A DNA stretch of 32,000 nucleotides from Candidatus Omnitrophota bacterium (GTDB taxonomy: Bacteria; Omnitrophota; Gorgyraeia; Zapsychrales; JANLHA01). The notes below the pieces were generated by a model. It was given only the letters and a program-made list of their open reading frames with translations, was not told the DNA's origin and made no database searches. Of the stretch, positions 1 to 24,800 are shown one piece after another. Location of the stretch: assembly GCA_963662715.1 (NCBI GenBank), contig OY759724.1, forward strand, positions 1,230,001-1,262,000. The letters run 5' to 3'. Positions within the stretch are counted from its first letter, which is position 1; the number at the start of each line of letters is the position of its first letter. Position numbers and translations under genes: made by a program.

Positions 1-860
1 AGACGAAGTATTCATAACCGCGGACCTGGCTGAGCGTCTTGCCGTCGTTATAAGAATACTGCAGGACAGGCAAGACCTTATCGGCGTCTGTTCCGAACAC
101 TTCGGCGATGCTTGACTTGATATCCTCCGGATTGACAATCAGGCGGATCTCTGTTTCATCGGTATACGGCTCGGCCCAGCCTCTCGCCAGCAATTTCTCT
201 GAAATTTCTTCCCAGTCAAGGCCTTCTTCTCTCTCGACCTGCTGCTGTGTCAGGACCTGCGGATCGACGATCTTGACCGTCATCTGCTCACCTCTTCCGC
301 CGGTCAGGATGAACTTCCGGCCGTCATTGCCCAGGACATCTCTCCGGTAATAATCTTCCTCCTCGGTCGGAGAACGGAAAACCCGGACTTCTTTCAAGCC
401 GTTGCCGTCCTTGAACACGATCGTTCCCGGATTGATTCCGACTCTCAGATCAACTTCAATATCTTCCCCGTTATTGACCTTGAGCTTGTGTCCTTCCAGC
501 CACAGGACATTAATACCGAAATCTTTGTTGGCATAAAGCGTGGCGATATCGCGGCCGCGGCTGTCATTCGGAGTCAGGTAATGGTAAAGCTGCTTACCTG
601 TCTTGTCCGGATTATATCGCGGCCGGCCCAGCAGAGGCAGGAGCGTCTTGGCATCCGCACCGAACACTTCCGTCATCTCCGCTCTCACGTCATTCAGGTT
701 GACGATCAGGTGAATCTCCTCAAGGCCTGTGCGCTGAGCCCACCCGTTGTGGAGCAGTTTTTCGGAGACATCGCTCCAGTCAAGCTCGGCTCTCTCGATC
801 TGATTTTTGGTCAGATAACCGTTCTCAAGGATAACCGGTGTTTCCTCAACGATATCAAAC
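1..860 (-). repeat. Diverged tandem duplication of a ~188-aa module (period about 565 bp); the second copy runs off the window
   Basis: ELDWSDVSEKLLHNGWAQRTGLEEIHLIVNLNDVRAEMTEVFGADAKTLLPLL (about 795-640) matches GLDWEEISEKLLARGWAEPYTDETEIRLIVNPEDIKSSIAEVFGTDADKVLPVL (about 230-75). Confidence 0.7.
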
Positions 861-3800
861 AATGTCGCGCGGGAAATACCCATCTTGGCCAGATGCTGCC
901 AGAGATAAGCATTTTCAAGTCCGAAGCGGACGAGCGCTGTTCTGTTGTAGGATCTTTCCATTTCCTCATTAAACAACGCCTCTGCCTGTACCTTCAGGCC
1001 AAGCGCTTCAGCCTCTTCAATACTTAACGTTCTGAAGAATGTTTCTATCTGATATTCAACCCGCTCTTCCGCTTTCTCTCCCGCAGGCCCTTCAATTCTG
1101 GTAATCACGTCATCGAGCTTCACGGACCGTTTCACTTCACCCGTTCTCTCATCAAACTCAAGACCCACGATAATTTCCACCAGGTCTCTTTCAAGATTAT
1201 CCGGGTTCTGGGCCGGGACAGCTTCTTCCCTGACCGTAATGATCTTTCTCTTCACCGGATCATGCGGGATTCGGTATGTCGTGGTTCGGACATTGTCAAC
1301 CGTTGTCTCTGTCGAAACCTCAAAGATCAGATCCGACAAATCATCCACTTTACTGAACCGGGACATATCAAGGTTCAGCAAGGCTTCTCTGACCAAATCA
1401 TGCTGGATAAGAGCGGCGAAATCGATCTGCTGAATATCTCCGGCCCTGACACGGCCCCTATTTTCCGTATCCCAGACTTTGACCCAGCCTGAACCGTTCG
1501 CGCGGATCTCAACCTCGCTGGTCTCATGCTTGCCTGTCGGAGAATATTCTTTTCTTTCCTGGATTCTGAAGATGCTCTTTTCACCCGCCCGCTCACCAAG
1601 CTGTTCGTTTTTGTCAGAATCCTTAACCAAGGCGAAGAGCTGTTCCTGATTTTCAAAGTTCTCCGGAATCTGGATAGACCCGATCTGTTCTACCATAATC
1701 TTGCCCTTAACGATTTCTCTGCGTGTGACAAGAGCGCTTCCGCCGAGTTTCTCCTGGTCTCTCAGGTTAATGAATGTCTGGACGCGGTTCTCCCTGGTTC
1801 CGGTATAGCTGTAAACTCCCGTGACATTTTCGACTTCAACCTCTGTGCCGTCTGCCTGACGGACCGTTACGGTGAGACCTGTCTCTTTCTTGTAATCCGT
1901 GGAATAAAGCTCTTCGCCCGTTTCCGGATCAAAATAACGGATCTCTTCGCGCTCAGGATCTGTGCTCTGCAGCAGTTCGCCCTGGGCATTGTACACGTCA
2001 TATCTTTCCGTATCAGCCGCGAAATCTCTGACCGTGACATATCTGTTGCCTTCGGCGTCAACACGAGTTGTCAGAGATTCTCCGATGACCGGGCCTGTTA
2101 TGTCGACTGTTCCGTCAGCATTGACCTCATAGTCATCCAGCCAGTAAACCTTGCCGACGTTTTCGGAATCAAAGATTTCAATCTTCGACTCTTCCTGATC
2201 CACGGCCAGGTACAAGCGGGCGCCCCTGTTTCCTGGGAGGGTAACGTCAAGCACGCCGAACTTGTTCACGTATCTTGCGTTCCAGCGGGCCTTTTCATAA
2301 TTGGCGACATCCATCAATTCATCCATGGTCATGGACATGGCCGTGTTATCCTGATCCGTGAAGAAGAATTCCGTCTGCTGTCTCTCTGCCACCATGTCTT
2401 CGCCGGCAAAGCTGTAGTCCACAATACCTCTCGTCATGATGTCAGCATCTTTCATCGATTCGATTCTTTCGCTCAAACCGCTCAACCGCTCTTCGGAAGC
2501 CCCTCTCTGTGTTTCTGCGACACGCTTACGTTCTTCTAAGACTTTCTTCTGCAATTCAAGCGCCGTATCTCCTCGATCCTCTTCCGGCGAATTATACGGA
2601 TCAACAAAGAGGCTGATAATCCATTCAATGAAGTCCATGAAGCGGTCCAGCAGGGACGGATTCCTGTCTACGGCGGCTGCTTCTGCGGCAAGCCGTTCTT
2701 CCGTTTCTTTCGCGATCCGCTCTTCGATCTCGGCGATTTCGGCTTCCAGTTCGCGGATTCTTTCAGTATATTCCTCAATTTCTTTCTGGGCTTCTTCCGC
2801 CTGTGCCGTCAAGACCGGCAACATATCAATGACCACCGTTGACTTCAGAGCCCTGAGCTCTTCACTGATATATCCGTCTTCCTGTGAATAGTACTGGATG
2901 GTTTCTGATTCCAGACGGCCTTCATACTGACCGGTCAGATATTGCGGTGAATAATACGGATAACCTGCGCCTTCATACTCAAGGTGCTGATCTGTCGTTC
3001 TGTATCTGTCAGAGTGATCCAGCGTCATCAGTCTTTCATATCTCTCATTGCTGATGATCTGGTAATCGAACAAGGTGCCCTGCCGCAGGATTCTCACCCA
3101 GTTGCCGCTCAACCGGAACTGTTTGACTTCGTCTTTATAATCCTGGCTCAGTTCGATGACAATGCGTCGGTTGCCGGCGATATCGACAAACGTGTCGGCC
3201 TCGCGGGTATCCGGCGTTGCCAGACGTGACAGCATGCGCGGTCCGCCGAACCTGGACAAGGACCACTGCAAAGTCCACTTAGACCCGTATTTATCCATGA
3301 ACGATGTCAACCGCTCCTTGATTTCCCCGGCCGATAAGTCAACGGCTTTGTCTTCGCCGGCCTCACGGAGGAGTTCGCTCAAGAAGCTTATGGTCTCGGC
3401 ATTGAAGGACACCGTCTCGATATAGGAGGCGATGTTCTCGCGGTCAACCGCAAAGATATCTTTCAGCATCTCGACCTGGTCTTTTGCCGCGAAGAGCGTT
3501 CCGTGACCGTTGCCCATCGGAATACCGAATTTATCTGAAGAAATTTCTTCGAACAGATCTTTTCCGGAAACATCTTCGCTGCTCCTTGCCGCCCCGAACT
3601 CGATGATAGCGCCGTCATATTCTCCGCCGACAACCACAAGTTTGCGCAATTCTTTACCGTCTTCGTCATAACGTCCTAACGGAACGAAATCTATGGTTCC
3701 GTTAGCCAGGTTGGAATCCGTTAACTCAAGCAGCGTTGCCAACGTTAAGCTGAACGAACCTGTTCCTTTTAACCGTAATGCGCCAATGTTGCCTTCGATG

Positions 3801-6800
3801 ACGGCCCCGTCATAAATTCCGCCTCTCACGACCGTTCTGGTTACGCTTTCTCCGTTAACCGTAACGCTCTCGGTCTCAAGATAGCCGTTGCTCTTATCCC
3901 CATCCGCCAGGATTTCCAGGATGTCCTTCGTCAATCTCACCGGCTCGGCATTCTCCAGCATCAACATATGAGAACTGCTTAACAATTCGAGCTCTCTCCT
4001 CATCGTCATTAAGTTGTCGTCCACAAACACGGCCTGGTTGTATCCTTCCGGCATCTCATTTCTCGTGTCTTCGCTGAGATCTTCGAAGTCTTGCGGCAAT
4101 ATGACGCGGGCCTTGCCCTCTTTCAGGTCAACCTTATACTCTACTGTCTCGCCGGCTCCGTTGACGTAGGTCGCCTTCATGTAGAAGGTCACCTGCTCTG
4201 TCTCTTCATTGATCGTACGGAAAATACCCACAGCATTAAACTGTTCTCTATAGTCTTCATAAGTGTCTCTGATGGACAAGCCGTAAGAGAGATCTGCTTC
4301 TGGGATGGCAAACAGCGGCGTACCGTCCACTAATTTTGCAACGCCGCCGAGGGTTTCCGCCGTAAAGGCCTCGATACCGCGGTCGACCAGATCAGCGCTC
4401 GGGATCACCACATCGCCTTGCGGAGTAATGGAAAGGAGGATATTGCTGTACACCGACTTCCGGCTCTTGATCAATATCCCTTCGATTTCTTCGAATTGAT
4501 CCTCTTCCAGACCCGGGAACCATGCCTTGAATTCCGCATCCAGCTCTTCGAATTCCGGAGCCACCCGCATGGCTTCCGATACATAGCCTTTCTCGATGAG
4601 TCTCGGAATAATCGTTGCCGCATCAAGCCCGGCTCTTTCAAACGGCTGGGCTGTCAGGATGCCGCGGCCGGAGCTCAAGGTCATCTCACCCGTGCCGTTG
4701 AGGTAGCTGCCGAAGATCTCTTCATCATCCTCGTTGAATCCGGTGGCCACGCCCAGCAACCGTTTATTTTCTTTATCCTGATCTTCAATATCCTTGCCTT
4801 TGATGAGCCGTCTTAACTGCTCCCAGGCGACAGAAACAAAATCATATTTAAGGTTGGCAGACGGCTCACCGGTTGTGGAATATCGCGCTTCATATTCAAG
4901 TTCTTTCGTAATGTTTCTCCGGACACTGGCGGTCGCGCCGTAATCGCCGTACTGGTTCACGAAGGCTCCAAGGCTGATGCCCTTCTTGCTATACTGCACG
5001 CCATATGTTTCAAGATCATTTTCCCTCTGGTAGTAACCGGAGAACGGCCCGACGTTGCTTCTCAGGCTTAACCGGTCAGAATCGCCGAAGGCCTGATCCA
5101 CGGACATGCTGAAAGTCTTCCAGCTGTATGTGGCCCCTAAGAGCGCGTAATACCGAGTGTAATCCTCCCAGAGGTCATGGACGAAACCGTCGCTTTCTTC
5201 CCTGACCCCGGAAACGCGTACGCTGAACTGATGTGCGCTATTCTCATTTGTCAAAGCCTGCTCGATTGTGATCTTCTGGTAATTGACCTTGTCATCAACG
5301 CCGAACGTGAGATCTTGTTCATCGATCGCCGTTTGCCCGGTCAGCGGATCAACGATATAAACATCTCCCACCTCGGCTCTGTATCCATCTATGTACCCGG
5401 CTTCGGCGCTGATGGTCGTCTTGTTTATCTTGACTTCGACATACCCTTCGACACCTTTGGTTTCCATCTCTTCGCCTTCAACATTGAATTTCCAGAACGG
5501 AGCGAGACCGGCATAGACTTCCGCGTCGCCGACTTCCGTACGGTAAGCCAGGACGTCCACCAGGAGGATAGCGGATTCTTCCTGATCCTCACCGTCATCC
5601 GGGTCGGCGGCGTTCTGCAGGTAACGGTAAGATTCTGTATAACCGACGGAGAGGTTATGGCTAAACGTCGTATTGTCTGCGCCGGAGAGGTCAACGCTCG
5701 CCCGGACGTAGCGGTTTTCAGGAGCGTTTTCGTTCTGAGCCTGGAAGGTTCCGGCTTCCAAATCTACGCCCGGAACGGCATTATGAACCGAGAACTGCTG
5801 GAAGGTGACGGTGGCTTCACCGTTGAGGTTGACCACGTCAATCGTGCCGGACTGAATCACCGGCTGGCCGTTGACCATGGCCACGCGGCCGTAAAGTTTC
5901 TTGTTCACGAACACTTCATCGCCAATCTTGATCACCGGCGGCGGTGAACGCGTCATGCGGGCGATGAAGTTGTTGATGGCTCTAACATGTATTTCTTTGT
6001 CTTCAACGCTCTCTGAACTCTCTTCAACAGCTTTGATTAGGTACTGTCTCAAGGCGACCAATTGATCGTTATAGTCATTCGCCGCATCGGCAACGGCATT
6101 AACCTGCCTCTTCGCGTCGAGTTTAAGCTGTTCATAATCCTCCTCAGCCTCCGCCAGCTTGTTGGCTTCTCTGAGATTGGTGATCTCAGCCTGAATCATC
6201 GGCAGCAAGCCGGCCGTCATCATATCAAAGGCAGGATCGCGTCCTTCTCCTGTTCTCTCATCAACAGCTTTTAACGAAGCCAGGGCGTTCTCGGCTTCTC
6301 TGTCCAGGACATCGCCGATTTCCTCACCGGCGCCTTCCTTGAAGTACTGGCCATTAGCGATTAACGTGTTGATCTCTTCTACGATCCTCAACCGCTCCGT
6401 CAAGATAGCCTGGTTCGCTTCAAAGAAGGCGATCTTGCGCTCAATAATCTGATCCACCGTCTCACTGGACCGACCTTCCTGCAGGGCCAGATCTCTTTCG
6501 ACCTGTCTGTGAACACCGTAGTCCGGATTGTCATGGAAAGCTCTTTCCTGGGACAAGGTCGGGATAAACTCGTTCACGAATTGTGTGGTGGCTTCGCTGA
6601 GAGGCCCGGGTCCGCGGTCGCCGTTGTAAGCCACGACTGTTGACAAGTATGTCTCTGCTTCCGCCGTACGGCTGTATCGGCCCATGGTCTCTTTGGCCCG
6701 CGGCTGGTCATCATCAATATGCCAGTATGTCTTAACTTCCTCAATCGTCTTGACCTTTTCAGGATCTTGTCCTGCCTTGCGCTTAATCGGGATAATGAAG

Positions 6801-9800
6801 AATTCATCGGTGAAATCAACGACATTCAGTTCGATCGACCTCCGGAGCAGGGATTGTTTTTCTCTGAGGAGGCCAGCTTCTGTTTCCGCTAATTCACGGC
6901 GGCGGTCTAACATGCTGGTGACTGTTTCGGCGGCAATATTTCCTCCCTGATCGCTGATCTCATAAAGTCTCTGATAGTAGCGCAGTTCTTGCAGGTTCCG
7001 GTTGGCTAAGACCAGCTCTCTGCGGGTGGCGGACAACCAATCATTGATCAGCGCATTATAATCGCTTTGGCCTCTCGTATCCCGCTCTAAGCTTTCCAGC
7101 TGCTCGATACCTTCTTCCAGGCGCTGGATATACCCCATTCTCTCAATGTCATCCTTGCCATGAGCTCTATCATATAAGCCGTCATCGCCGGTAATGCCTT
7201 TGGATCTGTCTCCGTAATACTGGATGCCTTCCCAAATTTCTTCGCGTTTCGGCAAGAGGTTCTCGAAATCTCTTTCATCCCACAAGGCCTCTATGGCAAC
7301 CAGACGGCCGGGTTTCGGATTGCCTTCGTCGTCATATTCGATTTCTCCCGTGATAGGATCTAACTCATACGGCCCTTCAATGGACTGAATCTGATAGCCC
7401 GCTCGTGTAATGGACAGGTTAACAGCCGCTTTCCAGCCTTCTGTGTCACCTTCCTCCGGCAGGTTGCCTTCGGAATCTCTTTCTCCCAACCCTAAGCCCT
7501 GGGCGGCCAAGACCATGTTCTCGGAAACGCCGTTCTGCAAGTTGCGCAAAGTCGTCAAAGCATCGGCGATATCAGCCAAATCTGTTCTTAAATCTTCAGC
7601 CGTTTCTACGCCGAACAGCGAGCCTGTGCCTCGCTCACGGTATTCGTTGATCACATCCGTCAAGACCTTAACCACATCACCGTCTTCTTCCTCGATCTTT
7701 TCTCTTAATTCGGCAAAGTATTTCTCACCGCTGACGTCGTTAGGATCTTCGGAAAGGGCGATCATTCTCAAATATTTCTCCAAGGCTGTCCCTTCAATCA
7801 GCTTGAAGTCTTGTTCCGCTCCGCTCTGCAGGAAGCTCTTCCAGGCGGCTAACCGCTGCTGGACAACGTCATCGTCTCTTTCAACCATTTGTTTCTCAAG
7901 CTCCTGCAGTTCATTGTCCAGCGTCCCCAACATGGCATTCAGTTCATCGACCAGGCCTTCCTGGCTGTCTCTGGCCTCGGTGAGCTTCGCTATGATCTCA
8001 TTCAGAGCCGTATCCTCGCTATCGAGTTTTAACAGGGTCGCCAGTCTCTGGATGTTCTGAATATCGGCCTGAGAATACTTCACCTGGTCAAAAGCGGATA
8101 ACTCTGTATTCACTTCCGGTTCGGAAACCGGCAGTTCAACGCCGTCTTCGACATCCATGATCGGAGTGCGGTCTGTATACTGATATGTTCCATCGGCATT
8201 CTGGACAGCGACCAGGTTGCCTCTGTCAGCCAGTTCATTGTAAACCTTGGTGAATCCTGGACCGTATTCGAATACGCTGACGTTTCCTGTACGGCGGTTG
8301 ATCAGCAGGGTGTTCGGCAGCACGTCGTCCGCCTGGTACTCGATAATCTTTCTGGCCACTTCTGTCTGGCCGTCCTGCTTGGTCCACTGCATCAGCAGAG
8401 ACATATATTCATCCTGCTCGCGGCTGATATAGTCGTTGACGATTTCCTGTTCGTTGAAGATATAGCGTGAACCTTCTCTCGGGTTGGATACCGAATGAAC
8501 CATGCCCACCGGAACGCCTCTTTCCGGTCTCAAGAAGAGGACGCCGACCTCACCCTTGATGGTTCTCTTATCCTGTAATGTCCAGTATTGTGTGCTGACT
8601 CTGTCTTCCTCTTCCCTCAAGGAGACGACCTCGTTGTCAAGCTGGGCACCGCCGATAACCAGTTTTCTGTACGGCGGCAGGCGGGTCTTCTTCACAACCT
8701 CGTCCGCCGCATACTTAATGGCGCCCTTCTCTAAGTTCGTTAATATCGACTCGTTGGTGACTGTGCTTTCCGGAATAGCGATCAACATTTCCGAGAACTC
8801 TTTATCACGCACAATCAGAATGGTCTGATTCTCTGAGGCCTCAACGATCTCGGAAGAGTTTTCAATTCTTAACGGATCGGTTACGCGGACGTTAACGATA
8901 CGGGCCGGTTCCGTCATTTGGTCCGTCGGATCAAAGACCACCATATCGATGCGTTCGCCGATTTCGGCCGGGATACGACCTAAGATGGCATCGACTTCCC
9001 TGCGGCTTAAGTCGGCGGCATTGTACTGGATTCTTTCACCCCGGTTGTTCAGATATCCGCTTTCTTCGATCTCGTTCAAAATGGTGTTGTAGATGATCTT
9101 GGTCTGTCCGTTCACATCGGCTGTGAGCGTTCCTTCTTCAATATCCAGGAGTTGATCCTGCGTCAGCTGGTCTGTCCTCAGATAATTTCCTTCGGTGTCA
9201 TAAACAGCCATCAAGGCCGCAATATCATCTGCCGGATTCGTATGCATCCAGAGGTTCAGTTCAGCCGGCTCGGCTCCGAAGATCACGATCGGATGGACAT
9301 AGCGGACTTCTTTTTCTCCATTATCTCCGCCTTCACCGCCGTCCGAACCGCCGATTTCGTTGATGATAAAGTGCGGATCAATTGCGACTTCAACCGGGTT
9401 GCGGCCTAAGTAGTAGGTCATGCCGTCACGCTCAAACAGTTTGTTCGGCAGCACGGCCGGCAGGTTCTCTTCGAAATAATGCTCGGCAATGATTTCCAGT
9501 GTCACCGGGTTGATGCTGACAGCCACCGGACGGGTCTCTTTGTTCTTGCCGAACATCGCCTCAAAGAGTCTCTGGTTAAAGACCTCGGACGGCAAGACAT
9601 ACATTTCGCCTTGCTCTCTGTACGGGAAGCGGTTGACCGGATCTTCCATGAAGGCTTTCGTGACCGGGGTCTTCGCTTCCTTCAGAGCCGCGGATGTCTC
9701 TTGCAGGGTTTCTTCCAGCTCTGCCCTTTCAGTCTCATCTGTTGTCTGGCTCAACTGGGCCTGTATCTGGACAATCTCTTCCTGCAATTCTTCAACGGCT

Positions 9801-12800
9801 TCGATGTTATACCAGTAGCGGAGCGTGATGAATACCGTTTCTTTTCTGTCTTCCGGATCCTCGGCTCTCAAATTGTATCGATACCCGAAATCAAACCAGT
9901 CTGCCGGATAAACATTGTCCTCTATTTCAATTGTTTCTCCTTCTTTTCCTCTCTGAACAGCATAGATAATGCTCGGGTCTGTGTTCTTTTTAGCCTCTAA
10001 GGTATAATCGACTTCCCGTCGGCCGATGAACGGTACGGCCGGATATTTATGGCCTTCGTAAACTGAATCCTTATCAGGATCACCAAAGATGCTCCATACG
10101 CGGCCGAAAACTTCCTGGACAAAGTCGCCGATCAAGTGCGACAACGGGATGTCAGCTTTGCGGCCCGTGCGGATATCAGAGAACTTGGCTTCCGTGCCTT
10201 CATCGTTAAGCGGAATAATTTCCGGACTGGCCTTAAGCTCTGTTGTCAGATCCACGAACGGCCGCAAGACGTCCAGGGCTCCGCGGGTCTTATCCAGTCT
10301 CCAGAAAGGATGTTCTCTCTGAACCGCGATACCGCCCACGCCTTCCATGTTGAGGTAAACCTTCTCCATGCCTTCGTTATAAATTTCTGATGCGGCCTGA
10401 GCCCAAGCGACATAAGTGAAGGCTTGGGTAGCGATGGAAGCATCTGCAATGCTTTCCGCCCCGGTGGCCATATTGATAATCTGGGCATATTTATTGAGCG
10501 GTGTATCGAGCCCGATCATGAAATCAAGCGTGCCGTCTTCCCAAAGCTGGATGGAATGCCCGAAAAGCTTGTTGCCCGGATTCCAGTTGATACCGATTCC
10601 GGCGAAGAGGCTGGCCACCTTCTGCTGATCCTGCTGGGTCAATCCATTGGCGAAGTTTTGCGGCGTGGAGGTGAGAACCTGGTTATAAACGTCAAAGACC
10701 TGATATAAGGCTTCCTGCCGTCTGCGTTCATCGTTACGGGCATCGCCTTCTGTCTTCATCTGGATCTGTCTCAGCAGTTGTCTGGCCTTAAGGATATCTT
10801 CTTCTAATTCCTGAATACCTTCGCGGACATCTTCTAATCTGTCTTCCGGTGTCACTTCTTCCGGAGCGTATCTGCCGGCTTCAACGTTAAAGAGTCTTCT
10901 CTGTTCACGATCTATCTGCTGGCGGATCTTCTCTGTCTGGACTTTCGTCGTTTCGCCCCGTTCGCTTAAGACCTGAAGTTCATCTTCTTCCAGGTACGGA
11001 TTCATGAGCGACAAGGTCTCATCATTAATCTTCAGCTTAAAGACATATTCGGACTGGGCTGTTGTCTCGGTTCTAAACGTGCCCGCCAAGCCCAGGATCG
11101 TGCCGGCCTTGATCTCCTGGCCGACCAAGTTAACGTTGGTGCCTGTGAGATGACCGAAGATCTGCTGGACTTTGACTGTCTTGCCTGACCCTTCTTCCAC
11201 TGTTTCGGATTCAATGATAATTTCTTCACCGAACGGACCAGGCTCAACGCTAATCACCGTACCATCCATATAGCTCCGGACTGTGCTCTGTTCCGGCACA
11301 ATATGCTTCACAAACAGGCCTTGTGCTCTGATCTGATATTCAGTATTCACAATCAAGCCTTCCGTCGCCGCTGTTGTTTCCGGAGTTTCTGACGGCACAA
11401 CGCGGCCGGCAAGTTCTGAGGCTACAAATCTCGGAGTATCAATATTATCGAATTCATCAACCAAGGCGTAAATTGGGTTCTTGCTGGCAAACCACAGCAT
11501 CGTTTGCATACGGTCGACCTCGGCAACTTCAACCGCCTGTCTGAACAATCGGTAGACAATCTGGTTCAGCTCTTCTCTCGTCTTGAACTTGTCTTCCTGC
11601 GAAACAATGAAGACCATACCTTGTTTCGGTCCGACCGGCTCATCGGTAAAGGATTCCTCGTCCAAGATAGCGTTAATGTCTGTTATATCTGATTCAGTTA
11701 AGTTTGTTAACGGCTCAACGCCATCTGTTGTGATCTTCATCAAGCCGGCGCCGGTTCGGTAAATCAGGTACGGATCCTGCTGATCCGGAGTGGCGACGCC
11801 GGCGCCTTCTGTTCTGAACTGTGCGTGATCATCGATTCTCAGGATCGACATGACCGGCAAGGCTTCCTTCAGCTCAAAGTTCTGCTTAGCAATCTCCATT
11901 CTCTCTCTCAAGCTCAAGTTCGCAATAACGTCATGCTGTTCGACTTTGGCATCCGCCTCCGTTTCGCTCATAAACCAGATGCCTTCTTCTCTATAAGATT
12001 CGTCAATCGCTTTGAATTCACCGTCAAGTCTGCCTAACCGGGTCGGGACCGTTACCTCTTGTCCGCTGGTCAACCGTGTTCTTAACCGGCCAAGATTATC
12101 CACATCAAGATTTTCGAAATAGTTCATAATTGTTCTGACATACTTCGGTGTTTCCTGGTTCTTGGAGACATCACCCTTAATAACTCTCGGGTAATACCCG
12201 GCAGAATACCCCGGTCCGGCGTTGTATCCGGCCAAGGTGTACTGCAGAAGCTCTCTTAACGTAAGGTCTTTGTTCTCATACTTGCTGTTCAACATGGTAT
12301 CCATAACCTTGGCCACATAAGCGACGCCAACGGTGATATTCTTCTCGCGGTCGAACGCTTCACCATAGGACCATCTGCTGTCGATAAGGCCTCGGCTGTA
12401 AAGCGTGTTAACCATGGAAGACCAGGTGCCCGGCATGATCTGCATAATGCCTGTTGCGCCGGCCCGGCTGACAGCTCTCGGTTTGAAGCGGCTTTCCTGA
12501 TACATCATGGAAATAATGAATTTCTCCAATTCGTCCTTTGTAAATAACGGCTGGCCGTTGTTGTCTTCAAATTCTTCGGCGACCTGTTTAAAGATCGGGT
12601 AGTTCTTCCAGGCATCTTCGAGGATATCATCGAGTTCACGGATATCATGGCTAACCGGTGTTCTGGTCCGGCGGGCTTTTAAGTCTTCCGCATCCGTCAT
12701 TTCTTCGACATCGGATACCGTCATCTGACTTATAGCTTCCACGGTCAACGCTGTTCCTGTGAGGTCTTCATCTGCTTTGGCTTTAAGATATCCGCGGTAG

Positions 12801-15800
12801 AATGCTTCTGTCGGATCAATGCGATATTTATCTCTTGTCATTAAGGAAATCACTTTCTGGCGATCGGAAGACGGCGCAATACAGATTTCCATATGGACAT
12901 GGGCGACCGTTGTTTCGGCATTACCTGTTTTACCCGAGAGGGCAAAGACTTCACCCGCTTCAACTTTATCTCCTTCTTCGACCTCGTAATCATTCAAGTG
13001 GAAGAAGATAAAGAAGACTTTATCGCCGCCCGCCACTGTTTCATCGGATTCGATGAAGACGGTCTTTCCTGCTTTCTCAGACGCAGGATTGGTATGGATA
13101 ACCCGTCCGGAAACCGGCGACTTCAATTCCACGTCTTCCGGCAGTAATATATCGATTCCGCCGTGACCATTGACGGACCCGATTCTATAAGTTCCGAATC
13201 TTCCGTCTCCCTTGGAATCCCGTCCGCGGAGGACCCCGGCAGCGATCATTTCATCTTCAATAGCCGCGTTGTTCTCGAGTCTCTCTGTTGTTTCCGGAAC
13301 GTCCCTGCCTTCCACTCCCGGTTCTTCGGCCACTTTTCTTCTCAGGTCTTCTGTAATCTCACCCTCAGCAATCTTATTGCTGATGTGGACTAACGATTGC
13401 GGTGTCAACTCAAAGTCATCCCGGTCGTCACCGCTGAGCTGGAATGCTTCCTGGAAGAAGGCGATATCCTGTTCATCTAAGTCATCCCATTTGGCCTTAT
13501 CTTCAACAACGGCATCAATAAGAGCTTTGGACAGATATTGTTCTAAGGATTCTCTGTTAGCTTCCACCAGCAACAATGCCAGTTGACGATCGCGTTTTTC
13601 TTTCATATCGGCCAGGAGCTGAAGCTGCAACTGTTCTGCGCTGAGATTGATCAATTCTTTTTCTGAAACATTTTCATCCTTCAGTTTTTCTCTCGTGGCT
13701 GTTATGGCTTCTTCCGCTTGGGCCACGGCATCTTCATCCGAAAGCTCTGCGTCAAAAGTCTTGGCTCTGGCCGCTAATTCGTATACGGCAATATCTTTTT
13801 CTCCACCCATAATGTTCTGATAGACCCAGTTGCTGGCGCGTATTCCAGCTGCATCTTCGACACTATCCAGACCATGCTGAGCCCAGTTAATCGCACCATA
13901 CTGACCTTCAAGAGCTTCGGCCAAATTGTAGATCGGTTTACCCACAACGCCTAAGATCGGGTGTTCAGCCAAGGCCTTGCTGCCGCCCATAACCGCGTCA
14001 ATTTCAATTCCGATCAAGGACATATGCCACAAGCTGCTTAAGAACTTGCCGCCTTCTAAGAGCCATTGAGCGAAATAGGATGTCTTGGCTTTTTCAGTTA
14101 AATCTTTATTAGCTTCCTGCATCAGGTTAACGAAGAAATCAAAATCAAATTTTCTCGTATTATTCATCAGGAAGACCGGGAGATATCCGAGATAGAAGAC
14201 CGTCGCCAGCGGCACACCTAACCAGAAGCCGGTTAAGGCCTTGCCTAATGCTAAGGCCCGGTTCATGATGCTTCGTCCCTGCGGCGCGGCAACCTTGGTT
14301 TCGGCCTCTAACATTTTCTTCAGGGCCGGCCGGCCTTCAGCCGTTACAGTTCCGTCGGCGATCAATTCCTTGATAAGAATTTCTGTCTTCTCATTAGCTT
14401 TCTTGCCCTCTGCCGGATGCATCAAGCCGTACAAGTAGCGGGCAGATGTCGAGGCGATATTAACACCTTGTTTCTTCCTGGCCCGGATATACATAAGATG
14501 TTTGGCTGTATCAAGAACACTCATGAATCTCAAGCCAAGCACCGTAATCATTAATTTGACAAGTTCGGGCACGGATAACGGCAAGCCTAAAGCGTTGGAT
14601 GCGACAACATCCATACCGAATATCGAGATAACGAGAGCGTGGCCGATAACGCCGGAAATGAGAAGCATGGTGCCTCGGCTGACCGCAAAGCGTACGATAC
14701 CAAACGGAACCGGGAAGGCGGAGACCAGCCAAGCCAATAACTTCTGTCGACCATATGTCCAGGTCTTGCGGATACTGCCTATTTTTTCAGTCGCTAATTC
14801 TTCTCTGAGGATCTCGGTCTCTGCTTCAACACTCTTCCTCTTCTGCGCATCCATGGTTCCGTCTTTGTATTCCTTGACGAATTCAGCAAAATCAATAGAT
14901 TTCATGATGTATTCCCAGAAGAAGTTCCAGACCACTTTGACCAGGTAAGGTGCCAGGTATCCGAAGATGGCGCCTTTAGCCACGGAAATCCAGAAAGCTG
15001 TTGTTGCTACTGCTGTTAAAGTAAGCGGCATGAACAGGGCGCCGACAACCGCCCCTGCTGCCAGTGAAACGAGGGCAATCTTTGTCTTATTCTTGTCGAA
15101 GATCCTTAACATGCTGCCGATTAATGAGGACGGCTTCGGAGCATATGTCTGGGAATGTATGATTCTCAACGCCTGGCGTTCGAGCAAGCTGACGCCGCCC
15201 AGGACACCGTAAGTTAAGGAGGCATCTTTTCCAGCCTTAAGATTACTGACGTCCTTCACAAACAGGGCCAAACCGGCCATAATTAGCGATGATACGCCGA
15301 AAATGGCTATAAGCGACCCAGCCATCGTTGGAACGAGGGCAATACCGGCAGCGGCTATTCCAGCGTGAATTAATAATTTGAAGACATTGTAGACATCGCG
15401 CTTTTGCAGCGGTCTGGTGAACAAATCTCTTAAGTTACTCCAAATACCAGGTTTGACTGGACTGGAGACATTGCCGGTCTCATGACTTGAAATCTCTGTT
15501 TCTTCTCCCTTAACCGGACTGGAGACCGAGGTGTCCTCTACAGAAGCCCGTACGGGCGAACTGGCCACAGGAAGCTCGGCCGCCGTGATATTGGCTTGCG
15601 GGCTTAAGTATGTAATTCCGCGGTAAATACCTTGCGGATACCCTGTCGGTAACATCTGATCCGTGAATCTGATGACCATAGATCCACGTTTTACGGCCTG
15701 CTGCCCAGCTGTCGCTATACTGCCTGTTCCGATCTTGCTGATCATGTGTTCAGCAAAGAATCTAGTATTGTTTTCTTCTGCGTCGCCGCTTCCCTCTCCG

Positions 15801-18800
15801 CCGGCCGAAATTTCGAAGACGATCTTTGTTCTCATGCTTTCCAGCAGTCTGCCTAAGTCCACTATCGGATTCAGGAGAGCGCTAAGAAGTCTTTCTGTCT
15901 GTCTCTTATTGTCTTGATATGTCTTTGTTAAGAGATAATAGTAGAACCCTGTCTGCTCTTTATAGGTTTCTGAGATACGGCTTAATTGCTTAATAAACTC
16001 ATCTTGTTTCTCAAAGCCTCTATTGACACCGGAATCAAAGACGGCCTTCAAGCCATACAAGGCCGTTGTGCTTTCCTCTCCGGCATTTCTGTCGATGGAC
16101 GTGATCAGGTCAGCCAATTGTTCTCTGCTTGTGCTTCTGTACAACTTCGAAGCAAACATTCTTCTGAAGAGGTAATCTCTTGCTCCCCTTGCTGCTCTTC
16201 TGTAATTTTCAGCCGTGCTGAGCGCTGTCCAGGCCGCCGTCAGGTGCTCAACCGTCTTCCTGTAATCTCTGGCCATGAACTCTTTGACCTTGCCAGGTAC
16301 ACTTCTGAGCGCTGTCCAGGCCGCCGTCAGGTGCTCAACCGTCTTCCTGTAATCTCTGGCCATGAACTCTTTGACCTTGCCAGGTACACTTCTGAGCGCT
16401 GTCCAGGCCGCCGTCAGGTGCTCAACCGTCTTCCTGTAATCTCTGGCCATGAACTCTTTGACCTTGCCAGGTACGCTTCTGAGCGCTGTCCAGGCTGCCG
16501 TCAGGTGCTCAACCGTCTTCCTGTAATCTCTGGCCATGAACTCTTTGACCTTGCCAGGTACACTTCTGAGCGCTGTCCAGGCTGCCGTCAGGTGCTCAAC
16601 CGTCTTCCTGTAATCTCTGGCCATGAACTCTTTGACCTTGCCAGGTACACTTCTGAGCGCTGTCCAGGCTGCCGTCAGGTGCTCAACTGTCTTCTTGTAA
16701 TCTCTGGCCATGAACTCTTTGACCTTGCCAGGTACGCTTCTGAGCGCTGTCCAGGCTGCCGTCAGGTGCTCAACCGTCTTCCTGTAATCTCTGGCCATGA
16801 ACTCTTTGACCTTGCCAGGTACGCTTCTGAGCGCTGTCCAGGCCGCCGTCAGGTGCTCAACCGTCTTCCTGTAATCTCTGGCCATGAACTCTTTGACCTT
16901 GCCAGGTACGCTTCTGAGCGCTGTCCAGGCTGCCGTCAGGTGCTCAACCGTCTTCCTGTAATCTCTGGCCATGAACTCTTTGACCTTGCCAGGTACACTT
17001 CTGAGCGCTGTCCAGGCTGCCGTCAGGTGCTCAACCGTCTTCCTGTAATCTCTGGCCATGAACTCTTTGACCTTGCCAGGTACACTTCTGAGCGCTGTCC
17101 AGGTCGCCGTCAGGTGCTCAACCGTCTTCCTGTAATCTCTGGCCATGAACTCTTTGACCTTGCCAGGTACACTTCTGAGCGCTGTCCAGGCTGCCGTCAG
17201 GTGCTCAACCGTCTTCCTGTAATCTCTGGCCATGAACTCTTTGACCTTGCCAGGTACACTTCTGAGCGCTGTCCAGGCTGCCGTCAGGTGCTCAACCGTC
17301 TTCCTGTAATCTCTGGCCATGAACTCTTTGACCTTGCCAGGTACACTTCTGAGCGCTGTCCAGGCTGCCGTCAGGTGCTCAACCGTCTTCCTGTAATCTC
17401 TGGCCATGAACTCTTTGACCTTGCCAGGTACGCTTCTGAGCGCTGTCCAGGCCGCCGTCAGGTGCTCAACCGTCTTCCTGTAATCTCTGGCCATGAACTC
17501 TTTGACCTTGCCAGGTACGCTTCTGAGCGCTGTCCAGGCCGCCGTCAGGTGCTCAACCGTCTTCCTGTAATCTCTGGCCATGAACTCTTTGACCTTGCCA
17601 GGTACACTTCTGAGCGCTGTCCAGGCTGCCGTCAGGTGCTCAACCGTCTTCCTGTAATCTCTGGCCATGAACTCTTTGACCTTGCCAGGTACGCTTCTGA
17701 GCGCTGTCCAGGCTGCCGTCAGGTGCTCAACCGTCTTCCTGTAATCTCTGGCCATGAACTCTTTGACCTTGCCAAGTACGCTTCTGAGCGCTGTCCAGGC
17801 TGCCGTCAGGTGCTCAACCGTCTTCCTGTAATCTCTGGCCATGAACTCTTTGACCTTGCCAGGTACGTTTCTGAGCGCTGTCCAGGCCGCCGTCAGGTGC
17901 TCAACCGTCTTCCTGTAATCTCTGGCCATGAACTCTTTGACCTTGCCAGGTACGCTTCTGAGCGCTGTCCAGGCCGCCGTCAGGTGTTCAACCGTCTTCC
18001 TGTAATCTCTGGCCATGAACTCTTTGACCTTGCCAGCTTTAATGCTTACAGCCTCAACAGTGCTGTCAACCATCTCTTTCACGCCACCTCGTTTGATGAA
18101 GTTATAAACCCTTGCGCCCAACATCAAGCCAGGAATAATGAGAAGGACTGGCCAAACGGCACCAACCGTTGTCGCAACAACTGGTACGGTCTTTGCCACA
18201 ACCGGCAAGCCGACTGTCAGACCTTTACCTAATCCATAGGAAACAATGAGGTAGAGTATCGCAGATTTGATGGTTCCTGTTGCTGCAGCTCTGAACATAT
18301 TTCTATAGGTTACAGCACTAAAGACCGAACGGAAGAACCTCGCCGTACTCGCTCCGAATGTCTTTACGGCTTCGCCCATCTGTCTTGCTTTCTTTGCCGC
18401 TCTCTGATATCTCTTGTAGGACTTGGAAAGCAGGATATCTTCAATAACTTCTTTATCTTTACCCGCTAATAATTGGGCTAATTCATCGTTATTATCGAGT
18501 TTCAAGCGTCTCAATAATTTTTCTGTTTCACCGAGATTTCTTTCTATCGGTGAAGAGGAGGCAGAAGCTGTAACGGATTCGCGGCCAGAGGCGGAAAGAA
18601 CAACCTTCTCTCCCACCTCTGGTGTTTGAGATAATGCATATCTGCCTCCCTTAGTTGAGATTTCTGCGTGATCCTGTTCTGTAAATCGGAACTGTTCTAT
18701 TCTGGATCGCACTGGAGAGGATGCCTCGAACATGGTTGTACTCGGCTGCGCTGGTAAGCTCAACCCAAGTTGCTTTAAGGCCGTTACGGCGGTAAATCCG

Positions 18801-21800: not shown

Positions 21801-24800
21801 ACACCAAATACATCACTTGATTGTGTACTAGCCTTCTCATCATTAGACACAGCATTCGATTCGCTTCCAAGCGTTGATACACCTTCATCATCACTTGTAG
21901 TCGTATCTTCAACAACGCTAACGATAAGTACAGAGCGATTAGTCCATTTGCTGCCGTACGTTCTAAGGATCGTTACAACACGATTCGTATACTGCTTCAA
22001 CCAAGCACTAACTTTCATCAGGGCCGATCTAACAGCCACGAATATTCCTTCAGCTACCTTGAATGGCTCTTCAAGGTTGTAGCTGGCTGTAGGCACAGCT
22101 TCCGGTAATGTACTTCTTCTAGACCCGTTACCAGACTCAGATCTAGCAATTCCCTGAATCAATCCGGACAATAGAGCCATAACTGCCTTGGCTATGCCTC
22201 CGAAGAGTATAGACCAATCAATTGCAGCTATACCACTAATACCAGATGTTCTCAAAGAACCGGCATTGGCGTATGTTCCACCTACACCTCTCGTGTTAAC
22301 GCCTCCACGATTGGCGCTCACCCATCGAGTCTCTAACTCATCCTCGGCTTTTTGTGTTGCTGCCGAGAGAACTGTACTACTCGTCTCAACATTGACGATT
22401 GCACTGCTTACACCGTTCGCGTTATCGTCACCGCGACTGGCGTTTCTCACCCAATTAGTTTTTAACTCTGGTGTCACCGCTGTCGAAGCAGCCGTGATCA
22501 CACGAGCCGATTCAGCGATTGTACTGCTCACACCAGCAGCTACGCTAGTTCTGGTGGCGTGTTTCTCCCTTACTTCTGTCTTCGCCTCTGATGTGGCCGA
22601 TGCGACAACCACACGAGCCGATTCAGCGATTGTACTGCTCACACCAGCAGCTACGCTAGTTCTGGTGGCGTGTTTCTCCCTTACTTCTGTCTTCGCCTCT
22701 GATGTGGCCGATGCGACAACCACACGAGCCGATTCAGCGATTGTACTGCTCACACCAGCAGCTACGCTAGTTCTGGTGGCGTGTTTCTCCCTTACTTCTG
22801 TCTTCGCCTCTGATGTGGCCGATGCGACAACCACACGAGCCGATTCAGCGATTGTACTGCTCACACCAGCAGCTACGCTAGTTCTGGTGGCGTGTTTCTC
22901 CCTTACTTCTGTCTTCGCCTCTGATGTGGCCGATGCGACAACCACACGAGCCGATTCAGCGATTGTACTGCTCACACCAGCAGCTACGCTAGTTCTGGTG
23001 GCGTGTTTCTCCCTTACTTCTGTCTTCGCCTCTGATGTGGCCGATGCGACAACCACACGAGCCGATTCAGCGATTGTACTGCTCACACCAGCAGCTACGC
23101 TAGTTCTGGTGGCGTGTTTCTCCCTTACTTCTGTCTTCGCCTCTGATGTGGCCGATGCGACAACCACACGAGCCGATTCAGCGATTGTACTGCTCACACC
23201 AGCAGCTACGCTAGTTCTGGTGGCGTGTTTCTCCCTTACTTCTGTCTTCGCCTCTGATGTGGCCGATGCGACAACCACACGAGCCGATTCAGCGATTGTA
23301 CTGCTCACACCAGCAGCTACGCTAGTTCTGGTGGCGTGTTTCTCCCTTACTTCTGTCTTCGCCTCTGATGTGGCCGATGCGACAACCACACGAGCCGATT
23401 CAGCGATTGTACTGCTCACACCAGCAGTTACGCTAGTTCTGGTGGCGTGTTTCTCCCTTACTTCTGTCTTCGTCTCTGCTGTGGCTGATGCGACAACCAC
23501 ACGAGTCGATTCAACGATTGCACTGCTTACACCGTTCGCGTTATCGTCACCGCGATTGGCGTTTCTCACCCAATTAGTTTTTAACTCTGGTGTTACTGCT
23601 GTCGAAGCAGCCGTATTCACACCAACCTTTGCTATCGTTACAACATATTCAAGTCCTGTCCTCTCTTGAGCAGCTTTTCCTGCCTGAATGCCTGAGGAGG
23701 CATTGGCAGCGGCCCACGGCGTGGGACTAGAGCCAGAACTTCTAAAATTCTTTTTGGCTCCTTTGTCTATACTTAAATCTATGTGTTGCCGTTCTGCTTG
23801 CGGATCAACAATTGGTGCGCTGGCAACAGAAGCTTTATTAGCATTCATATTTCTGGCATAGGCGATAACCAAAGCTGTCTTGGCTTTTGCCGTTCCTGTA
23901 GCTCCGGCAGTTCCTCCGCCAGGAGCCGGCTCTTCAACAGGAGCAGGAGAACTAAACGGTGAACTTGTAATAGGAACACCTTTGGTTCCGCTATCCTTTC
24001 GGCCTTCTATAGGATTATGTTGATTGGACGGAAGAGACAACTTCCCAAGACTGAACGCTGCTATAGGCAATGCAGGGATAAATATTGGAGAAGACGGCAC
24101 AGCTTGCACAGGTAATTGCGGCGGTGCAACAGGCTCTGTAACAACAACTGGCGGTGCTAGCGGCTGTTCTTCCGGAGGCGCACGAGAAGCTTCCGTTAAT
24201 ACGGTTTCTTCCGGTTTAGAAAGGTCTTCCTGTTTAGCCACTTGCCCTGATACCTTATCCTGAATTGTTATCCCTGAAGCATCGGCAGGTTTCTCTGCTT
24301 GGGCCTTGTCCACTTTTGCCACTTCAATAACTTCTTCCTGGGCTCCTTCTTTAATTTCACTGCCGAACAAGAAGGCAAAGGCATCTTTAAGTTGTCCCCA
24401 CAAGCTCTCTGAGGACTCTTCGCCAACGAGAGCAACCAAATCTTCCTTAGTTTTAATTTTACGCAACTGATTAAGCGATTTTTCTAATATTGGATAGCCG
24501 TCTTCTGAAATTGTACGCTGTCCTTCCTGCTGTGCGGCATTGATAACAGCGTCCATCTCTTTGGCAAGCAACTGTCTTTCTGCCTGATCCTGAATTGACT
24601 GAGACATGACGGCCTTTATAACATCAAATGCTTTTCTGTTATCGACTGACAACTTCTCAATTTGCTGAATAACTGGTGAAGCCTGCGCAAGGCGCGGAAC
24701 CTCTGTAACCGTACCTGGTTGGTCTTTGGCTGTGGTAGAAGCTTTTGCAATTTCAACATATTTGGTTTGACTCTTTAACTTCTGACCATACGGAGTTCTT

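Follow-up and report, generated by a model that had tools for sequence, protein, structure and literature searches.

The giant gene and its beta-rich segment

The window analysed here, a 32,000-nt stretch of contig OY759724.1 from a Candidatus Omnitrophota bacterium, is an internal part of a single giant gene that runs off both window ends, because one minus-strand frame contains no stop codon across the whole window (10,666 codons, Table 1; amino acid (aa) positions below refer to this translation). With the continuation found in a homologous contig (L001, see below), the encoded protein exceeds 12,000 residues. It has only three cysteines in 10,666 residues (aa 3534, 4271, and 6373) and is strongly acidic from aa ~6000 on (Asp+Glu 14-24%). 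The element under study is a beta-rich segment (aa ~8684-9054), which sequence comparison identifies as a conserved domain whose family is very rare. With moderate confidence, based on structure prediction, we read it as a new family of outer-membrane-type barrel that would secure this giant inner-membrane protein to the outer membrane of the same cell.

A sequence-only reading of this DNA had described the segment as rich in beta-strands, Tyr, and Gly, with the sequence character of an outer-membrane barrel. The three peptides it quoted are found in one minus-strand frame (4910-5005, 5618-5710, and 5426-5521) and the limits it gave are good: the motif RSPPPVIKIGD begins at position 5950, and 4838 is the end of SANLKYDF, the last strand-like motif. 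It had also placed the segment far downstream of a helical anchor, and the segment indeed lies ~2,740 aa past the helical transmembrane cluster. The content of aromatic residues (Y+F+W) in aa 8731-9054 is 12.7% versus a mean of 6.6% (standard deviation (sd) 2.9%) across the protein, and is unmatched by any of 192 overlapping 324-aa segments sampled across it. Lys+Arg is near the protein minimum in the same interval, and the period-2 hydrophobic periodicity shows a local peak at the segment (~+1.1 sd) that is no extreme outlier.

Relatives of the beta domain

A word-indexed search with the segment retrieved one relative, P0001, with ~64-65% identity over 99% of the query (E 1e-178). An exhaustive HMMER search of 1.84 billion cluster representatives detected eight relatives (P0001-P0008, E 1e-178 to 3.5e-4), the seven distant ones sharing 27-33% identity with the segment (E 2.5e-28 to 3.5e-4); a word-indexed profile search picked up only two of these eight. 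All eight are fragments of large proteins (171 to 3,444 aa). The source of P0002 (on a 32.8-kb contig) and of P0005 is named Candidatus Omnitrophota bacterium, and the relatives carried by the longest contigs derive from Omnitrophota metagenome-assembled genomes. Three others are encoded on 2-7 kb contigs binned as Acidobacteriota, Aenigmatarchaeota, and Deltaproteobacteria, a binning that we consider unreliable at such contig sizes. Scans that covered genomes of representative species as well as viral and metagenome contigs yielded no further relatives, and a megablast search of 12 kb against a phage collection gave no match.

No significant matches in Pfam, NCBIfam, or the PDB sequences were obtained with the window segment, with single family members, or with the family profile. 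In the PDB sequence searches, the window segment returned only chance-level matches (E 0.31 and 0.6; Affimer, titin) and the profile of alignment A2 returned none. The single family-level trace is a match of P0006 to IAT_beta (PF11924) over 55 residues (E 0.048; 13.6 bits versus a cut-off of 22.3), which we regard as a lead only, given its sub-threshold score.

At the entry to the beta domain stands the Pro-rich motif R-S-P-P-P-V-I-K-I-G-D, and its residues R21, S22, P23-25, K28, and G30 (alignments A1 and A4) are invariant in the window, P0006, and P0007. The N-terminal extension that begins with it was modelled with a confidence below 50. Just before the beta domain, a helix is predicted at aa 8665-8682, and the last part of the preceding conserved region (aa ~7129-8683) is helical by sequence character.

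Predicted fold of the beta domain

Two models of the domain were obtained with AlphaFold2 (AF2). The first, built on alignment A1 (9 sequences, 447 aa), has a mean predicted local distance difference test score (pLDDT) of 59.5, with an all-beta core at pLDDT 75-85 and disordered flanks. The second (me94d3eb6daf7), built on alignment A2 and trimmed to aa 8725-9062 (338 residues), reaches a pLDDT of 76.5 and a predicted template modelling score (pTM) of 0.69; 75 residues have a pLDDT >=90 and 170 more lie at 70-90 (245 of 338 at >=70). This trimmed model consists of 18 consecutive antiparallel strands (S1 to S18) of 7-26 residues each, mostly connected by turns of 2-9 residues, and 76.5% of residues 7-317 are in beta-strands. 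Because half of the strand connections span only 2-3 residues, the 18 strands are neighbouring hairpins. The strand layout is equal in both models. The beta-structure that the sequence-only reading expected from pattern recognition is borne out by these predictions, and the segment is a conserved domain rather than a chance pattern.

Searching the PDB with the trimmed model, Foldseek found 86 matches at E<=1e-3, and 50 of the 50 among the matches listed are outer-membrane beta-barrels. These comprise TonB-dependent transporters (including BtuB, PiuA/PiuD, and FrpB), FadL/TodX, LptD, OmpG, the Vibrio OmpT porin, PorV, and the autotransporter barrels of EstA, Hbp, and EspP. The first model gave a similar outcome, again outer-membrane barrels, and in a viral library most of the best fold matches were annotated as porin, autotransporter beta-domain, or SusC. 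No solenoid, sandwich, RHS shell, or lipid-transfer groove is present among the PDB fold matches listed. Of the two folds that had been proposed from the letters alone, a membrane barrel or a beta-solenoid, fold prediction favours the former (18 antiparallel strands, outer-membrane-barrel neighbours) and does not support the latter, as the strands form antiparallel hairpins and no solenoid or beta-helix is among the matches listed. The role as an adhesin or carbohydrate-binding element that had also been suggested found no such family or fold match. A repeating beta-groove of the TamB/AsmA lipid-transfer type was likewise dropped, since none is among the matches listed and the periodic crossover elements are lacking.

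To compare the two faces of the sheet, we took for each strand the longest series of alternate positions that contains no charged or amide residue. One face is rich in V/A/L/Y/F/W and the other in E/G/S/R/T: the pooled 'outer' face contains 16 V, 13 A, 9 L, 9 Y, 8 T, 7 S, 6 G, and 4 F, and the opposite face 9 E, 8 G, 8 S, 5 R, and 4 Y, with T also among its polar residues. The alternating hydrophobic columns are kept across the relatives at 23-30% identity. Where the relatives carry large insertions, these sit in loops that mostly share one side of the sheet (in P0004 and P0007, for example, 20-25 aa between S6 and S7), which is the pattern expected of extracellular loops.

After S18, the motif SANLKYDF forms a strand in the first model (E384-389) and has low confidence in the trimmed one. 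Compared with the beta-signal pattern of outer-membrane proteins (polar-x-G-x-x-aromatic-x-aromatic/hydrophobic), which is short and degenerate, the corresponding SGGFQYDF of P0001 conforms, SANLKYDF of the window departs from it only by having N where the pattern has G, and the distant relatives are ambiguous. SANLKYDF is a possible 19th or closing strand.

Hydrolases and membrane anchors around the domain

Over the 10,666 aa of the window, Pfam detected only Peptidase_M23 and SLT. The catalytic motifs of the M23 domain (HGGID and HVH) and the motifs of the SLT domain (QES, GIMQIMP, and AGYNAG) are intact, and the NCBIfam matches are to murein endopeptidases and transglycosylases. Pfam reports two M23 stretches; the second was placed by alignment with residues 380-461 of P0005, where Pfam finds M23. 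This second M23-like stretch seems to lack the HxxxD and HxH metal ligands. The degenerate domain may have a regulatory, non-catalytic role, as EnvC and NlpD do.

Hydrophobic helices are found upstream of the hydrolases, as an early pair and as the main transmembrane cluster (Kyte-Doolittle values of 1.64-2.51 in 19-residue windows), and none occurs later in the window. As read from the sequence, basic residues are more numerous before the last upstream helix than after it.

BLASTP blocks covering aa ~6450-9060, from the SLT/M23 domains to the barrel, are common to P0002, P0003, P0005, and P0006, and include a conserved region of ~1,550 aa for which Pfam has no match. In P0002, the SLT/M23/barrel block constitutes a gene by itself, which begins with its own Met and transmembrane helices, and a further transmembrane helix is located just before its SLT domains. 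Because of this separate gene with its own start and helices, we regard the block, by sequence comparison, as an autonomous module. In the Omnitrophota metagenome-assembled genome (MAG) GCA_041650215.1 (L003:1-20331), P0002 is encoded directly downstream of a gene of at least 7,357 aa that has no similarity to the N-terminal 6,000 aa of the window. Different giant partners thus seem to have gained this module by fusion or lost it by splitting.

Table 1. Features of the giant open reading frame in the window
Feature	Position (nt)	Strand	Evidence
Continuous open frame, 10,666 codons	2..31999	-	No stop; colinear with L001, 59-65% aa identity up to the last window residue
Porin-like beta-rich domain core, 18 predicted antiparallel strands (aa 8731-9041)	4877..5809	-	AF2, Foldseek, conserved hydrophobic alternation
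Possible 19th/closing strand SANLKYDF (aa 9047-9054)	4838..4861	-	Strand in first model, Y-x-F ending
Conserved N-terminal extension of beta domain (aa 8684-8730), begins R-S-P-P-P-V-I-K-I-G-D	5810..5950	-	Alignments A1, A4
Conserved region without family annotation between hydrolases and beta domain (aa ~7129-8683)	5951..10615	-	BLASTP blocks
Peptidase M23 domain (aa 6278-6373)	12881..13168	-	Pfam PF01551, E 4.2e-19
SLT lytic transglycosylase domain (aa 6492-6597)	12209..12526	-	Pfam PF01464, E 4.5e-16
Probable second, degenerate M23-like domain (aa ~6901-6994)	11018..11299	-	Alignment with P0005 380-461
~7-8 hydrophobic helices, inner-membrane anchor (aa 5539-5945)	14165..15385	-	Kyte-Doolittle
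Earlier hydrophobic helix pair (aa ~4577-4627)	18119..18271	-	Kyte-Doolittle peak 2.04 and sequence
Post-barrel part of extracytoplasmic segment (aa 9055-10666), acidic	2..4837	-	No transmembrane helix or family match

A glucan synthase in the homologous gene

Contig L001 carries the same gene and its open reading frame (ORF) continues for ~1,930 codons past the window end. A single transmembrane helix occurs 157 aa past the window end and is followed by RQRRAAKD, then by ~6 transmembrane helices, a Glucan_synthase domain, and at least 8 more transmembrane helices. The domain (L001:10627-11602; Pfam PF02364, FKS1/GT48, E 4.2e-67) lies ~1,260 codons beyond the low-coordinate end of the window and is encoded in the same ORF, ~2,700 aa downstream of the beta domain. 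The chain of L001 re-enters the inner membrane ~1,770 aa after the beta domain, which the sequence-only reading had not foreseen. The GT48 family is mainly eukaryotic. Fungal FKS1 has the same layout flanked by transmembrane helices as in L001, and its catalytic domain is cytoplasmic.

The charge bias around the last upstream helix, the hydrolases, which must act outside the cytoplasm, and the transmembrane helices and GT48 domain of L001 lead us to infer that aa ~5946 to ~10,820 form one extracytoplasmic stretch of ~4,900 aa between inner-membrane anchors. The beta domain would lie about two-thirds along this stretch, bracketed by helical anchors.

The L001 ORF has two breaks, the first a run of N (scaffold gap) and the second a 14-nt difference. 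At L001:2560-2700 (corresponding to aa 9111-9117 of the window, ~4650-4670), 57 codons past the barrel, L001 has 14 nt fewer than the window; this breaks the frame, and the called protein P0001 ends in ...FGTSGF at the resulting stop. An assembly error, a pseudogene lesion, and a real gene split after the barrel are the candidate causes, and we did not treat the position as a gene end.

The combination of helical and transmembrane parts with M23 and SLT domains is also found in phage tape-measure proteins. This assignment was dropped on the size of the protein (>12,000 aa), the lack of matches in the phage searches, and relatives in Omnitrophota MAGs.

The hydrolases and the anchors bear on another explanation, in which the domain would act on the envelope of a prey or host cell, as a module that forms pores or inserts into membranes. 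Giant proteins have been proposed in the literature to attack the cell wall of prey, and this explanation would fit the predatory role suggested for those of Omnitrophota; the M23 and SLT domains could digest prey peptidoglycan, and the fold is porin-like. We nevertheless consider this explanation improbable: in known beta pore-formers, many subunits contribute hairpins to the barrel, unlike the monomeric 18-strand domain predicted here, neither a toxin family nor a toxin fold was matched, and the chain, anchored on both sides in the inner membrane of its producer, would have difficulty in reaching the membrane of another cell unless cleaved.

Weighing the proposed outer-membrane barrel

Several observations weigh against a barrel in the cell's own outer membrane. 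None of the outer-membrane protein family models of Pfam matched the segment or the nine family members. TM-scores to real barrels are only 0.25-0.50, with root-mean-square deviations of 10-19 A. Strands S1, S9, S12, S14, and S15 have apolar runs of just three alternate positions and S5 is hydrophobic on both faces. With a net charge of -29, the interval aa 8731-9054 is very acidic. The tight turns are those of the odd-numbered connections and, for a strand 1 starting from the periplasm, lie on the wrong (extracellular-loop) side, so that one extra strand at each end would be needed to put them on the right side. The downstream transmembrane helices and GT48 were seen in the homologue L001 and not in this window. 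To our knowledge, an outer-membrane beta-barrel does not occur together with polytopic alpha-helical anchors of the inner membrane in any known protein. The models add to these points: the alignment has nine sequences, five of which cover the last strands, where confidence is low, and the five AF2 models spread from pLDDT 59.8 to 76.5.

The variation among the five models, the terminal strands below pLDDT 50 in the trimmed model, the low mean pLDDT of the first model, and the small number of aligned sequences would all fit an AF2 prediction that over-reads a period-2 pattern of hydrophobicity, given a very shallow alignment, with no defined barrel fold behind it. We give this explanation little credence, as 245 residues of the trimmed model were predicted at pLDDT >=70, the same strand layout was obtained in both models, and the domain is conserved both in P0001 (65% identity) and in the distant relatives (27-33%).

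A possible, if doubtful, explanation is that the segment is a soluble periplasmic or surface beta-sheet domain, such as a curved sheet, an RHS/YD-type shell, or an 'antiparallel beta-helix' tube, that serves as a scaffold or binding module. The low TM-scores to barrels, the apolar faces of S5, and the short apolar runs of several strands speak for it, as does the acidity of the domain, which it shares with the rest of the extracytoplasmic part. West-Roberts et al. (10.1101/2023.11.21.568195) report novel hollow antiparallel beta structures in Omnitrophota giant proteins, and a 2026 preprint (10.64898/2026.06.07.730766), using DeepTMHMM, obtained no beta-barrel calls in its own collection of 900+ giant proteins and dismisses two corpus-scale beta-barrel calls as artefacts. 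Against a soluble sheet, the 50 PDB matches listed are all outer-membrane barrels and include no RHS, Tc-toxin, teneurin, sandwich, or solenoid structure, the Pfam RHS and YD models had no match, and 18 neighbouring hairpins with a conserved hydrophobic and aromatic face would be hard to keep soluble.

The outer-membrane-type barrel remains our preferred reading, and the evidence for it is computational throughout. Starting from the conserved beta-rich domain, its predicted 18-strand topology, the flanking transmembrane helices, and the M23, SLT, and GT48 domains, we infer barrel closure by pairing of strand 1 with strand 18, insertion into the cell's own outer membrane, the loop topology, and any pore function, as well as every other step beyond strand topology. 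Omnitrophota encode the outer-membrane secretin RcpA (PMC10066038), consistent with a diderm envelope.

A candidate mechanism for the predicted barrel

Dedicated lytic enzymes clear peptidoglycan for flagella and secretion systems. In the mechanism we propose, alpha-helical transmembrane clusters on both sides of the ~4,900-aa stretch would hold the protein in the inner membrane, and the active-looking M23 and SLT domains would open the peptidoglycan locally. The conserved ~1,550-aa region and the Pro-rich RSPPP hinge would lead on to the barrel, which the cell's machinery for beta-barrel assembly (BAM) would insert into its own outer membrane, where it would anchor the giant protein. The chain would then return to the inner membrane, where the FKS1-like (GT48) glucan synthase comes next. 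With an even number of strands, the barrel would both begin and end in the periplasm, as suits a chain that has to go back to the inner membrane.

The barrel might also serve as the pore through which glucan made by the same polypeptide leaves across the outer membrane, which would amount to a fused version of synthase-dependent polysaccharide secretion. By analogy with such systems, an exit pore could be conceived because a processive glucan synthase is part of the same polypeptide and the predicted barrel has short loops and a polar lining. We judge it rather unlikely that the full arrangement applies, i.e., that one chain sits in both membranes as a complete trans-envelope glucan machine, with helical anchors and GT48 in the inner membrane, the 18-strand barrel in the outer membrane, and a hydrolase-bearing loop of ~4,900 aa between them.

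Omnitrophota giant proteins are almost wholly unannotated, and the published surveys report no beta-barrel in them. An outer-membrane-type barrel between two inner-membrane anchors would, if true, give one such giant a concrete topology that can be tested. It would surprise specialists and pose a new problem of outer-membrane protein assembly, as BAM would have to deal with a substrate whose two ends are both held in the inner membrane. Together with GT48 and the wall hydrolases, it suggests that at least some giants build or export a surface glucan across their own envelope and do not only attack prey. If the domain is soluble, it is just a new beta-rich module.

Comparison with known envelope systems

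The outer-membrane porins of synthase-dependent secretion offer a parallel for the proposed exit pore. AlgE has 18 strands, BcsC and PgaA have 16, and PelB is also such a porin. They resemble the domain studied here in their similar strand number, in having the barrel after a long periplasmic region, and in their link to a processive glycosyltransferase of the inner membrane (here GT48, in the same ORF of L001). They differ in that the synthase here is GT48 and not GT2, and in that porin and synthase would be one polypeptide, whose chain goes on past the barrel. The Pfam models BCSC_C, Alginate_exp, and PgaA matched none of the nine members, these porins are absent among the 50 Foldseek matches listed, and no tetratricopeptide repeats were detected. 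West-Roberts et al. (10.1101/2023.11.21.568195) described pilZ genes near giant genes, a further likeness to synthase-dependent secretion.

The OmpM/SlpA tethers of deep-branching diderms, composed of an S-layer homology (SLH) domain, a coiled coil, and a barrel, have the same order of wall-interacting domain, long stalk, and outer-membrane barrel within a single chain connecting layers of the envelope. They are unlike the giant protein in that its wall part is hydrolytic (M23/SLT) and not SLH, it is also anchored in the inner membrane, and its barrel is internal rather than C-terminal. No sequence match or listed fold match to OmpM/SlpA was found.

Inverse autotransporters (intimin/invasin) share a non-C-terminal barrel that follows a periplasmic, cell-wall-related domain. 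Their barrels have 12 strands versus 18 predicted here, and the IAT_beta match in one of the nine members (P0006) is not colinear. Moreover, the downstream chain in L001 returns to the inner membrane (transmembrane helix and GT48) instead of forming a surface passenger. An inverse autotransporter with a surface passenger was dropped on these downstream elements and on the sub-threshold score of the IAT_beta match.

The ushers PapC and FimD also have a barrel with periplasmic domains on both sides, but it comprises 24 strands and a plug, and ushers have no inner-membrane anchor. VirB10 is known to reach both membranes with a single chain; it crosses the outer membrane with helices and not with a barrel. 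Ushers and VirB10 are not among the fold matches listed.

Giant proteins of Omnitrophota have been reported to contain many transmembrane helices, peptidases, glycosyltransferases, and occasionally SLT (West-Roberts et al., 10.1101/2023.11.21.568195; Seymour et al., PMC10066038). The protein described here agrees with these giants ('Archaeovorins') in its giant ORF, many transmembrane helices, peptidase, SLT, and glycosyltransferase (GT48 in L001), and relatives of the beta domain are named Omnitrophota. The Archaeovorin type contains glycosyltransferase, peptidase, methylase, and NUDIX domains and usually SecA-DEAD. Within the 10,666 aa of the window, where the gene is incomplete at both ends, Pfam found no SecA-DEAD, C39, dockerin, TSP3, methyltransferase, or NUDIX domain. 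An outer-membrane-type barrel in Omnitrophota giants is undescribed by West-Roberts et al. (10.1101/2023.11.21.568195) and Seymour et al. (PMC10066038). The term 'GT48' does not occur in the 2026 preprint (10.64898/2026.06.07.730766), and the 'glucan' passages retrieved from West-Roberts et al. (10.1101/2023.11.21.568195) and from that preprint describe no glucan synthase. We class the domain as a new family, with a fold of a known class and an unusual position.

Repeats and motifs elsewhere in the giant gene

Near-perfect in-frame tandem repeats are present inside the ORF at 16218-18036, 22499-23533, and 29087-29302. They comprise a repeat of 87 nt in 20.9 copies (98% identical) that encodes the basic 29-aa unit KVKEFMARDYRKTVEHLTAAWTALRSVPG, one of 111 nt in 9.3 copies (99% identical), and one of 69 nt in 3.1 copies. 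Two long ORFs on the plus strand (15986-18232 and 22188-23669) are mere shadows cast by the tandem repeats. In addition, a unit of ~200 aa is present three times at aa ~3690-4170.

Two short motifs recur in the protein, GG[ML][ML]x[VM]SS.V[IV] nine times (for example, GGMMQVSSSVI) and SSP[VI] ten times, spanning window positions ~24950-29746 (aa 752-2350) and aa 195-5515, respectively. All ten copies of SSP[VI] are N-terminal of the main transmembrane cluster. Both motifs could be processing or modification sites.

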